Below the pieces are notes generated by a model, which was given only the letters and a program-made list of their open reading frames with translations, had not been told where the DNA came from and did no database searches. From NCBI GenBank assembly GCA_963813535.1, contig CAWEZH010000002.1, positions 1,696,001-1,760,000 on the forward strand: a stretch of 64,000 nt of DNA, read 5' to 3'. This stretch comes from an uncultured Chloroflexia bacterium. Its GTDB lineage: Bacteria > Chloroflexota > Limnocylindria > Limnocylindrales > CSP1-4. Of this stretch, positions 35,636 through 36,505 are shown in pieces. The translations under genes were made by a program, and so were the position numbers. Within the stretch, counting starts at the first letter, position 1; each line of letters opens with the position of its first letter.

Positions 35636-36193
35636 GTGTTCGTCCTCCTCGCCGTCCCGGTCGGCGTCATCCTCGGGTTCCTCATCGGCGGTCGGCTAGA
35701 GCGGCTCTCGCAGATCCACTTCGAGTGGGCGTGGCTGGCCGTCGCCGGTCTCGGGACACAGATCCTCCTCTTCTCGACGTCCCTCGGCGAGTCCTTCACG
35801 GGTGGCGTGGGTGAGGCGATCTACGTCGCCTCGACGGGTGCGGTCCTCGTCGCGGTCTGGCGGAACCTGGCGATCCCGGGCCTTGCCCTGGTCGCGCTCG
35901 GGGCGATCTCGAACCTTGCGGCGATCGTGGCGAACGGCGGCGTGATGCCGACCACGGTCGAAGCGATGACGGCGGCCGGGCTCGACCCGCTCGAGGGCTT
36001 CTCCAACAGCGCCATTCTTGAAGATCCCGCGCTGGCGCCGCTCACCGACATCTTCGCCTTGCCGGCCGGGCTGCCGTTCTCGAACGTGTTCAGCATCGGC
36101 GACGTCCTGATCGCGCTCGGCATCGTCCTGGTGATCGCCATCGGGATGCGTCGGGGCGACCCTCGAACGACCCAGCGACCGTCCTTCGACTGA
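35636..36193 (+). CDS. DUF5317-like integral membrane protein
   Basis: GG.L..L N-terminus, N..IPG, SN...I.ANGG.MP, L..LTDIF and VFSIGD motifs; about 5 TM helices. Confidence 0.75.
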   Translation: MFVLLAVPVGVILGFLIGGRLERLSQIHFEWAWLAVAGLGTQILLFSTSLGESFTGGVGEAIYVASTGAVLVAVWRNLAIPGLALVALGAISNLAAIVANGGVMPTTVEAMTAAGLDPLEGFSNSAILEDPALAPLTDIFALPAGLPFSNVFSIGDVLIALGIVLVIAIGMRRGDPRTTQRPSFD

Positions 36194-36364
36194 CTCGCCG
36201 CGGTTCGCCGTCGAGCGTGCGGCGGTGCTTCGCCGCACCCCAAGCCACTCAGGTCATGGGCGGATGGTACGGATGGCCTATGGCTGCCTGCCTCGTCGTC
36301 CACGTACGTTGCGGTCAGAGAACAACGCCCATCTCCCCTGGACTGACCGAAACGAGGGACCGCG

Positions 36365-36466
36365 ATGAAGAACATCATCAAGTCGGGGACCTTCCGGACG
36401 CTGATGCTCCTGTCCGCGCTCGCCAGCTCCGGCCTCGTGCTGGAAGCGGCGCGCCGCTGGAACTAG
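36365..36466 (+). CDS. Micro-peptide MKNIIKSGTFRTLMLLSALASSGLVLEAARRWN (33 aa), signal-peptide-like
   Basis: GAGG RBS, high GC3 codons and downstream hairpin. Shares its C-terminus with the ORF at 47091-47174. Below the ORF-track cutoff. Confidence 0.75.
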   Translation: MKNIIKSGTFRTLMLLSALASSGLVLEAARRWN

Positions 36467-36485
36467 CCCCGGATCGACCTACGAC

Positions 36486-36505
36486 GCCGGCGCTCGCGCG
36501 CCGGC
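36486..36505 (+). terminator. Hairpin after the micro-peptide gene
   Basis: GCCGGCGC-TCGC-GCGCCGGC followed by CTGTT. Confidence 0.5.

Follow-up and report, generated by a model that had tools for sequence, protein, structure and literature searches.

The locus treated here raises the question of whether a very small open reading frame (ORF) is a gene at all, and whether it works together with the membrane protein encoded directly in front of it. The window, i.e. the whole stretch of 64,000 nucleotides (nt) that was analysed, comes from an uncultured Chloroflexia bacterium (assembly GCA_963813535.1, contig CAWEZH010000002.1, positions 1,696,001 to 1,760,000), and the locus in it consists of a gene for a membrane protein of the family DUF5317, followed by an ORF for a micro-protein of 33 amino acids (aa). 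An initial annotation had taken the DUF5317 protein for a protease with the fold of LspA, the signal peptidase for lipoproteins, that would cut the micro-protein and release a pheromone from it. The reading preferred here, which is a tentative one, is that a two-gene membrane module of cyclic di-GMP (c-di-GMP) signalling in Limnocylindria-type Chloroflexota is present in the window in reduced form, and that in this module the micro-protein may dock in an LspA-like groove of DUF5317 and be cut at a lipobox without cysteine. The parts of the locus on which this depends are the following:

35636 to 36193 (stop), forward strand: DUF5317 gene, 185 aa, GTG start (Pfam PF17248).
36354 to 36359, forward strand: ribosome binding site (RBS) GAGGGA, 5 nt 5' of the ATG, read from the sequence.
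36365 to 36466, forward strand: micro-protein gene, 33 aa, subfamily A, ATG to TAG, defined by the ORF and its homologues.

The coordinates, the motifs, the spacing of 18 residues between two aspartates of the membrane protein, the RBS, the hairpin downstream and the gap of 171 nt between the two genes (36194-36364) were all found in the sequence as the initial annotation had described them.

The 33-aa ORF is almost certainly a real gene, judging by how its sequence has changed among relatives. Translated matches were found down to 47% identity, and the micro-ORFs of the relatives inspected are intact with start, stop and RBS. The loci fetched contain 77 distinct intact copies of the gene, nearly all of which carry a purine-rich GGGA/GGAG/GAGG element 5' of the start. 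The median pairwise ratio of nonsynonymous to synonymous substitutions (dN/dS) is 0.58 in the ORF frame (2,246 pairs) against 1.32 (513 pairs) and 1.68 (2,374 pairs) in the shifted frames, and the summed column entropy by codon position is 26.8, 20.8 and 33.7, which makes the third position the most variable. It is the combination of 77 intact copies, a coding signature in this frame only, the RBS and the conserved C-terminus that leads to this conclusion, and with the pairing counts given below it bears out the earlier claim of a genuine gene linked to DUF5317. The window peptide is also present letter for letter in the ESM Atlas, where the nearest clusters are unnamed proteins of 33-34 aa with 52, 434 and 266 members. 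As to transcripts, metatranscriptome contigs of two runs span parts of the DUF5317 gene with 88-99% likeness, in small shares for which DNA carry-over is possible; no RNA contig covers 36365-36466 in the public sequencing runs searched, all of which consist of contigs and are silent on expression of the micro-ORF.

Micro-proteins of this kind fall into two subfamilies, A (the window type, about 33 aa) and B (about 29 aa), which often stand in tandem with B before A. A profile made from the alignment of both has matches in 86 of 121 genomes of the genus (E <= 0.01), and in a sample of the class the micro-protein was found in 15/101 genomes, among them 9/29 in the family of the window and 5/33 in a second family, with no match to the profile in the three other families sampled (0/4, 0/33 and 0/1). 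The genome of the window, whose assembly is 93% complete and which the names of close homologues place among Candidatus Limnocylindrales/Limnocylindria (Chloroflexota), has exactly one copy. Throughout the family, a basic N-region ending in Arg is followed by about 10 hydrophobic residues ending in L-A-S and then by 11-13 residues ending in A-[GA]-x-[RK]-W, with 0-3 more behind; the window peptide has a basic N-region, a hydrophobic core of 15 residues containing L-A-S and the C-terminal residues A-A-R-R-W followed by N. Numbered from the Trp, A(-4), [GA](-3), [RK](-1) and W(0) are present in 75/75 distinct core sequences and R(-21) in 73/75. The L-A-S motif, which lies 8-10 residues after the Arg that closes the basic N-region, resembles a lipobox: L(-13) is found in 67/75, A(-12) in 68/75 and S/T(-11) in 66/75 core sequences, and L-A-[ST] is followed by S or M. 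Cys is absent from the 27-residue core that was tabulated in 74/75 of these sequences, and from the window peptide.

The membrane protein in front is a plain member of DUF5317, with a score of 97.1 bits where the cut-off is 25 (E 1.3e-27) and a match to positions 1-150 of the 151 in the profile. The family is widespread, with 2,805 relatives at E <= 0.001 in a search of 1.84 billion cluster representatives and members in the control genomes of Thermus and Thermotoga; a full-text literature search for 'DUF5317' and 'PF17248' found no paper, and a search of the ESM Atlas with the protein's own family left out gave no usable match. In the window, DUF5317 carries the motifs G-A-I-S-N (G89 to N93), L-T-D-I-F (D138) and V-F-S-I-G-D (D156). 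Among 54 diverse members, N77, G89, N93, N100, P105, L136, D138, S153, G155 and D156 are invariant, and the Asp pair is likewise unchanged in the 12/12 free and fused forms that were aligned. The AlphaFold2 model of the full-length protein has a mean predicted local distance difference test score (pLDDT) of 93.6 and consists of five helices (residues 2-16, 32-47, 58-75, 83-99 and 154-172) with a structured outer loop (100-153) between helices 4 and 5.

Structures were compared by VIA-align against 48,161 chains and by Foldseek against 350,542 chains. Because the lists obtained with the full-length model were filled by generic helical hairpins fitting helices 1-3, residues 53-185, which make up the LspA-like module of DUF5317, were modelled alone (pLDDT 91.9). 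With this domain model, VIA-align puts 5dir_A at rank 1 (Z 6.1, root-mean-square deviation 2.7 A over 86 residues, 21% identity) and 6ryp_A at rank 2 (Z 6.0, 4.8 A over 96 residues, 17% identity), while the top five Foldseek matches are all LspA chains (6ryp, 5dir A/B/C and 6ryo; template modelling score 0.47-0.51, E 0.8-3.4). That 5dir and 6ryo/6ryp are lipoprotein signal peptidases was established by a sequence search with the genome's own LspA. These matches gain their weight from the fact that two aligners independently rank LspA first and that the Asp positions agree. The structural alignments end with model residue 131 on 6ryp chain residue 163 (offset 32) and model residue 119 on 5dir chain residue 158, from which D138 and D156 would fall on Asp118 and Asp136 of 6ryp, the Staphylococcus aureus LspA, and D156 on residue 143 of 5dir, the Pseudomonas aeruginosa enzyme. 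The same pairing is obtained from sequence profiles: hhalign gives the domain a score of 25.8 (P 0.0015) with 19 Chloroflexota LspA sequences, where the highest of 100 column-shuffled controls reaches 17.9 and the reversed one 12.0, and aligns L-x-D138 with V-V-D and S-I-G-D156 with N-V-A-D, and hhalign of the full-length protein also pairs the Asp dyad.

According to a passage in PMC6952399, the S. aureus enzyme has four helices, with the dyad Asp118/Asp136 near the outer surface, and 14 conserved residues are listed there. About seven of these 14 highly conserved residues are matched in DUF5317 (G, N, hydrophobic-x-D, F, a small residue and D). A number of results tell against a close relationship. 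With the full-length model, Foldseek returned 34 rows at E 1-10 without LspA among them, to which VIA-align on the same 34 rows added nothing, and VIA-align placed LspA 5dir_A only at rank 29 (Z 5.4). Even with the domain model the structural scores are modest, LspA standing only 0.5-0.8 Z above unrelated helical proteins and at the border of significance, and the hhalign probability is only 5.8-16.8%. The Pfam family Peptidase_A8 (PF01252) matches DUF5317 below threshold at residues 76-168 (11.4 bits against a cut-off of 25, E 0.37), compared with 118.7 bits for the true lspA of the genome, and the DUF5317 profile found nothing relevant among PDB sequences (a chance match to carbamate kinase had E 0.77). 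Seven of the conserved residues are missing, namely the Asp/Lys of helix 1, the Asn/Gly of the cradle, the Asp-Arg pair and the Asn of F-N. On our reading of a part of PMC6952399, the Asp-Arg pair hydrogen-bonds inhibitors in complexes with LspA. There is also no sheet after the first helices in the DUF5317 model, i.e. no beta-cradle, and there are five helices, not four.

Taken together, the C-terminal domain of DUF5317 is very probably LspA-like in fold or ancestry, as far as models and alignments can tell. It is best described as LspA-like in fold and probably in ancestry, and not as a member of family A8, in which it is not filed because its Pfam score lies below the threshold. Of the LspA fold that had been claimed for it, the core recognised by the fold searches with the domain model therefore stands, whereas membership of the family, the helix number and the beta-cradle do not.

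Short LspA-like proteins were considered as a bridge between family A8 and DUF5317, and the idea was dropped: there are three sub-threshold Peptidase_A8 matches in other Chloroflexota, and the two that were inspected are of another kind and not DUF5317. These two (L048:451-981 and L050:582-968, both on the forward strand) are proteins of 128-176 aa with G-N, Y-A-T-D-W and T-N-V-A-D, score 20.7-23.9 bits for A8, and look like a separate, trimmed LspA-like family. A further observation concerns the genome's own lspA (L003:1441-1965, forward strand, G000:C2), which reads F-N-L-A-N and so has Asn in place of the second catalytic Asp. In 22 of 24 genus relatives LspA reads F-N-x-A-D; G018 has F-N-L-G-D, and G021 also has Asn at the Asp position. 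The genome's own LspA moreover reads D-Q where its relatives have the conserved D-R. The enzyme may have lost its activity or may truly vary at these positions, or the sequencing or the assembly may be at fault.

The link between DUF5317 and the micro-protein was counted from both sides, and all of the evidence for it comes from one bacterial class, in which related genomes are not independent samples. From the side of the peptide, there are 140 matches in the 121 genus genomes, five rows weaker than E 1e-5 being left out; as 150 of 278 DUF5317 matches were listed, the pairing counted in this way is a lower bound. At least 75 of the 140 have a listed DUF5317 gene 145-867 nt upstream on the same strand. 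Another 36 have neither a listed DUF5317 nor a listed riboswitch nearby, and 13 of the 27 loci fetched from among these have DUF5317 directly upstream. With two further loci, at least 90 of the 140 peptide matches are thus paired with DUF5317 directly upstream on the same strand. From the side of DUF5317, the peptide lies directly downstream in 39 of 80 loci of related species; three more loci have the order DUF5317, riboswitch, peptide, DUF5317, and in two the peptides are divergently upstream. The pair is found in at least two unrelated flanks, between a DinB-family gene and a peptidase S9 gene (type 1, that of the window) and behind a GGDEF-EAL gene (type 2). In the second family of the class, five genomes have a match, and all four loci inspected read DUF5317, riboswitch, peptide(s). 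A prediction of the complex between DUF5317 and the micro-protein scored 0.01 against a mark of 0.32, with the fold of the partner uncertain, and is counted neither for nor against an interaction. On balance, the two genes probably work together, though with much less certainty than attaches to the existence of the small one.

The frame of DUF5317 is broken in four of the paired loci, by assembly error or decay. In L051, L065 and L069, the neighbouring DUF5317 is split over two or three frames and the peptide ORF is intact. In L009, the DUF5317 and S9 genes are both split and the start and stop of the peptide look disturbed; the split S9 gene and the disturbed ends of the peptide suggest assembly errors there.

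The setting of the module becomes apparent from the relatives, in which the full cassette consists of a GGDEF-EAL gene (not always present), DUF5317, a riboswitch of the class c-di-GMP-I-GGC and one or more micro-protein genes. The class is assigned by Rfam match (RF03167, gathering score 59 bits), with c-di-GMP as the putative ligand. This variant was reportedly defined by Weinberg et al. in 2017 (PNAS), and it is possible that small ORFs behind it, or its ligand, have been noticed before. RF03167 lies directly 5' of B-type peptides in L011 and, twice, in L014 (63-64 bits), the aptamer of L015 is just under the gathering score at 56 bits, and values of 60-66 bits are reached in the sister and ancestral cassettes. 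Of the 121 genomes of the genus, 108 have a match to RF03167, which exceeds the cut-off in 93 of them. For at least 67 of the 140 peptide matches, one of the listed aptamers ends 31-40 nt upstream or, for the second gene of a tandem, 132-155 nt upstream. Two loci with synteny of the window type, L096 and L133, have an aptamer between DUF5317 and an A-type peptide (L133: RF03167, 62.2 bits; L096: RF01051, 46.9 bits against a cut-off of 35). The locus in the window has no Rfam aptamer match at E <= 1.

Enzymes that make and break c-di-GMP accompany the family in several ways. In 17 of 18 riboswitch-bearing DUF5317 loci there is a GGDEF-EAL-like ORF within 3 kb, mostly directly upstream on the same strand, and one of these was identified as GAF-GGDEF-EAL by Pfam. 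In L142 and L148, DUF5317 and a GGDEF-EAL-like stretch share a single open frame of about 1,050 aa, which in L142 is a DUF5317-GAF-GGDEF-EAL fusion by Pfam. Among 30 longer database relatives of DUF5317, most are fusions with MFS_3/MFS_1, four with EAL, and one combines HD_5, HD, GGDEF and MFS; some of the fusion proteins are from other phyla, going by source names. The statement in the initial annotation that such genes often have HD-GYP and GGDEF proteins for neighbours was right, and the fusions and the riboswitch loci make the link a stronger one than had been supposed. Of 16 distinct peptide loci without a neighbouring DUF5317, seven lie before or between GGDEF-EAL genes and one near an HD-GYP gene, and seven have neither kind of gene within the stretch fetched. 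Its fusions to GGDEF-EAL and MFS proteins make DUF5317 itself a candidate receptor or input element, of the kind that the initial annotation had missed in the window.

The genome of the window has a second DUF5317, fused to an MFS_3 'transmembrane secretion effector' transporter and placed directly after a membrane HD_5 (HD-GYP-type) gene, and it has two RF03167 aptamers:

L002:25-1395: HD_5 gene, by Pfam (with the next gene, G000:C3:758502-761948).
L002:1429-3447: gene for the DUF5317-MFS_3 fusion, by Pfam.
G000:C2:432396-432466, forward strand: RF03167 aptamer, outside the window.
G000:C2:1645155-1645231, reverse strand: RF03167 aptamer, outside the window.

Judging by the open frames of 650-780 aa in which DUF5317 matches lie, the DUF5317-MFS fusion seems to be common in the genus. 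The two aptamers precede genes for secreted proteins with Pro/Thr-rich linkers. In one of these proteins Pfam recognises an alginate lyase domain (E 3.4e-11); the second is Pro/Thr-rich and has a glycoside-hydrolase-like motif, E-I-D-I-L-E, that is presumably typical of family 16. Secreted, polysaccharide-related proteins are usual in c-di-GMP regulons, according to a passage in PMC7266159.

Other elements lie between and behind the two genes in the window, the first of them in the place of the riboswitch:

36266 to 36284, forward strand: conserved intergenic block GGTAC-N-GATGGCC-N-ATGGC, from the alignment of 12 orthologous spacers.
36305 to 36310, forward strand: -10-like hexamer TACGTT (TAnnnT), putative, at a conserved position.
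36486 to 36550, no strand assigned: two GC-rich hairpins (36486-36505 and 36517-36550), from the folding of a 111-nt stretch.

Most columns of the block are invariant in 12/12 orthologous spacers, and two copies of ATGGC form a direct repeat in it, with 7 nt between them. L096 and L133 also have a related block, upstream of their aptamers. At the column of 36305-36310, TA[CG]NNT is found in eight of the nine alignment rows with letters, the row of L133 being shifted by one. A scan with the sigma-70 consensus found no promoter at the conserved block, and the consensus RNA structure of the type-1 spacer has only 11 weak pairs at -6.3 kcal/mol. The block may be a promoter or operator that acts at the level of DNA and not of RNA, and it may be the site of a regulator that replaced riboswitch control. 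We infer that the ancestral cassette consisted of promoter, riboswitch and peptide and that the lineage of the window has lost the riboswitch. The expression platform of one riboswitch that was folded gave z -1.3, with no clear terminator or hairpin that would sequester the Shine-Dalgarno sequence.

The two hairpins occupy the 100-nt spacer between the micro-protein gene and a convergent S9 gene; the first has a GC stem of 8 bp (36486-36493/36498-36505). The folding energy of the 111-nt stretch is -60.1 kcal/mol (z -4.8), which none of 200 shuffles attains. The hairpins were not flagged by a scan with the terminator consensus, no T run being present, and are probably terminators for both directions even though no T run follows either of them. 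The neighbours of the module are:

35127 to 35624, forward strand: DinB-family gene (Pfam DinB_2 E 1.2e-5, 26.2 bits against a cut-off of 24.8); the start is provisional, as the ORF is open from 34953.
36567 to 38585, reverse strand: convergent gene of the prolyl-oligopeptidase family (S9; Pfam Peptidase_S9 E 1.4e-39), a conserved neighbour downstream by synteny.

Only 11 nt separate the end of the DinB-family gene from the start of DUF5317, with which it is likely to be co-transcribed, and a DinB gene lies upstream of DUF5317 in most of the 80 related loci. The S9 peptidase gene is a conserved downstream neighbour and is not counted in the module. Some 1.8 kb upstream of the module, a gene at 32915-33856 (forward strand) joins a cupin domain to an adenylate/guanylate cyclase catalytic domain (Pfam E 2.6e-15), so that another nucleotide second-messenger enzyme is encoded close by. 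On the other side, 38552-41479 (reverse strand) is one open frame of 975 aa in which, by eye, several proteins seem to be combined: one part resembles a methyltransferase, another a pyrroline-5-carboxylate reductase, and two resemble DinB.

How the two proteins might act together can be outlined from the LspA comparison. In LspA, the helix of the signal peptide is thought to occupy the space of H2-H4 with the lipobox extended across the dyad, according to a passage in PMC6952399. By analogy, the micro-protein would insert with its N-end inside, its helix would dock in the LspA-like pocket of DUF5317, for which helices 3-5 and the outer loop would correspond to the H2-H4 core, and the Asp pair would cut it at L-A-S or directly behind. 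The level of micro-protein would then act on, or through, DUF5317. In the full cassette the riboswitch would set the supply of micro-protein, and in the lineage of the window the gene would be driven from the conserved promoter-like block after the loss of the riboswitch. A feedback or an export step is suggested by the company of DUF5317, whose neighbours or fusion partners are enzymes for the synthesis and breakdown of c-di-GMP or an MFS exporter. In this outline we infer the docking, the cleavage and its position, the sense in which regulation runs and any signal that is released. A micro-protein that is the ligand of an LspA-like pocket is the simplest mechanism, because it makes use of the peptide, the pocket, the pairing, the riboswitch and the fusions together, and the invariance of the Asp pair is the reason for leaning towards cleavage over binding alone. 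The lack of Cys in turn means that the peptide is no classical LspA substrate, which counts against the proposal.

The same molecules could interact without any cut, and on this somewhat doubtful alternative a stable single-pass micro-protein binds and tunes DUF5317, or the membrane domain of a neighbouring GGDEF-EAL or HD-GYP protein, by a helix flanked by the invariant Arg and the [RK]-W anchor; DUF5317 would be a sensor or input domain whose Asp pair binds a ligand or acts on another substrate. The 19 residues between R(-21) and [RK](-1) correspond in number to a membrane helix, over which the conserved positions are scattered, and the place of DUF5317 at the N-end of GAF-GGDEF-EAL and in EAL, HD_5+GGDEF and MFS fusions is that of an input domain. 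An N-terminal membrane domain of a GGDEF-EAL protein is more typically a sensor than a protease. At several loci where no DUF5317 adjoins the peptides, a same-strand gene for a membrane GGDEF-EAL protein follows them directly, and many genomes have DUF5317 and no peptide: DUF5317 is found in 118/121 genus genomes against 86/121 for the peptide, and 36 of the 80 DUF5317 loci have no micro-ORF, a relaxed scan for a hydrophobic ORF of 22-60 aa ending in W within 1.3 kb after DUF5317 having found none there either. Most of these 36 loci keep the DinB-DUF5317 synteny, many with the S9 gene too. The wider occurrence of DUF5317 and the loci without peptide imply that DUF5317 has a job for which no peptide is needed. 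An Asp pair that never varies (54/54 and 12/12) is however more usual for catalysis than for a pseudo-enzyme, and the conservation of the micro-protein has no significant helical periodicity (permutation p 0.62), so that a single packing face is not evident. Equally hard to credit fully is the view that the two are neighbours only, the micro-protein being an independent member of the c-di-GMP riboswitch regulon, e.g. membrane-active or matrix-related, with no direct interaction, and its place behind DUF5317 an ancestral arrangement that was inherited and duplicated. The regulon is broad, since the same riboswitch class precedes secreted proteins in the genome of the window, and the peptide has its own conserved promoter-like block and RBS. 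Each of the two genes also occurs without the other; the peptide is kept where the adjacent DUF5317 has been deleted (L010, which reads DinB-peptide-S9, as well as L052-54 and L057). With linkage confined to one class, much of the adjacency can be inherited synteny, and the counts are not independent events. Against mere neighbourhood, DUF5317, (riboswitch) and peptide follow one another in this order in at least two unrelated flanks and in two families, and the peptide resembles the molecules bound by an LspA-type pocket.

A special case of cleavage is the pheromone of the initial annotation, a very short extracellular signal containing RRW that DUF5317 would release in the manner of AgrB and AgrD. 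Whatever favours cleavage favours this as well, the C-terminal A-[GA]-x-[RK]-W is the most conserved part of the peptide, and the DUF5317-MFS_3 exporter fusions would suit a cut-and-export machine, to which peptidase-containing ABC exporters are comparable. It is nevertheless improbable: neither a receptor nor, by Pfam, an AgrB-like protein accompanies a peptide that has no Cys, a mostly hydrophobic fragment of about 12 residues may stay in the membrane, and the surrounding genes point to intracellular control by c-di-GMP and not to quorum sensing. The analogy with AgrB/AgrD is not supported. That the conserved stretch is no protein at all, but a non-coding RNA or the remnant of a riboswitch expression platform, can hardly be maintained. 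Rfam riboswitches lie near it in sister loci, and the micro-protein is known from genes alone, yet the start, stop and RBS are conserved in all those intact copies, the substitutions fit coding in this frame only, and the locus in the window is without an Rfam match at E <= 1. A type I toxin, suggested by a small hydrophobic peptide in tandem with a long leader, was also considered and set aside, with no search for an antisense RNA, the riboswitch and the c-di-GMP enzymes being a better explanation of the leader.

If the micro-protein is a ligand or substrate of DUF5317, as preferred here, a wider and more speculative conclusion would be that DUF5317 is a new branch of the LspA-type intramembrane aspartyl proteases (or of receptors derived from them) that acts on lipid-free micro-proteins resembling signal peptides and, with the c-di-GMP riboswitch, closes a feedback loop. 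In such a loop, c-di-GMP would set the level of the micro-protein via the riboswitch, the micro-protein would be bound or cut in the membrane by the DUF5317 domain, and this domain, as the input module of GGDEF-EAL or HD-GYP proteins or as the gate of an MFS protein, would reset c-di-GMP or export the fragment. This matters in several respects. DUF5317 is a widespread family without an assigned function, for which an LspA-like fold together with the invariance of the Asp pair provides a testable activity, and the riboswitch, the fusions with GGDEF-EAL and HD-GYP proteins and the neighbouring genes provide a physiological setting. A relative of LspA that does not depend on lipid would, if true, widen an enzyme class that has so far been treated as having one class of substrate and as an antibiotic target. 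As an output of the second messenger, a membrane protein of about 30 residues controlled by a c-di-GMP riboswitch would be unusual in being so small and tractable, and it is a concrete case of a conserved micro-protein short enough to be overlooked by gene callers and protein searches.

Among known systems, AgrB/AgrD shares only the general idea of a membrane protease beside a small precursor peptide; in the window there is no Pfam match to the AgrB domain at E <= 1, no Cys in the peptide for a thiolactone and no receptor of the AgrC/AgrA type. Small membrane proteins that act on larger ones are exemplified by MgrB with PhoQ, AcrZ with AcrB and SpoVM with FtsH. Like these, the micro-protein has about 30 residues and one helix and is encoded beside, or co-regulated with, a membrane partner; unlike them in sequence, it shows no relation to any of the three, and we know of none among them that is under a c-di-GMP riboswitch or paired with an LspA-like protein. 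The c-di-GMP-I (GEMM-I) regulons are matched by the sister and ancestral cassettes, in which the aptamer lies 31-40 nt 5' of the micro-protein gene, in contrast to the copy in the window, which is without an aptamer.

LspA itself (family A8; PDB 5DIR and 6RYO/6RYP) resembles DUF5317 in its core of three helices with an outer loop, in the two Asp near the outer face of the membrane, with the same spacing of 18 as the S. aureus enzyme has in the account given in part of PMC6952399, and in the motifs G-x-x-x-N closing the preceding helix, [VL]-x-D and F-x-x-[AG]-D. LspA substrates as described in the same part of PMC6952399 have a layout of n-region, h-region and lipobox to which that of the micro-protein, with its L-A-S, is similar. 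The differences are that DUF5317 has five helices where LspA has four, that its model is without the beta-cradle, and that its loop from G-x-x-x-N to the first Asp is 33 residues longer; the candidate substrate is without Cys and hence without lipid, and the genome has an ordinary lspA besides. A precedent for the use of such an enzyme in signalling comes from Enterococcus faecalis, in which LspA takes part in making peptide pheromones from the signal peptides of lipoproteins, according to a passage in PMC4173765. As described there, that pathway (LspA, Eep and the exporter PptAB) likewise has a product resembling a signal peptide, an enzyme of the LspA type and a separate export step. The enterococcal pheromones are, however, parts of the signal peptide of a full lipoprotein, with the active part before the lipobox (in the same part of PMC4173765), whereas the module described here, known from genes alone, has a gene that encodes little beyond a signal peptide and conserves the part that follows the lipobox-like motif.

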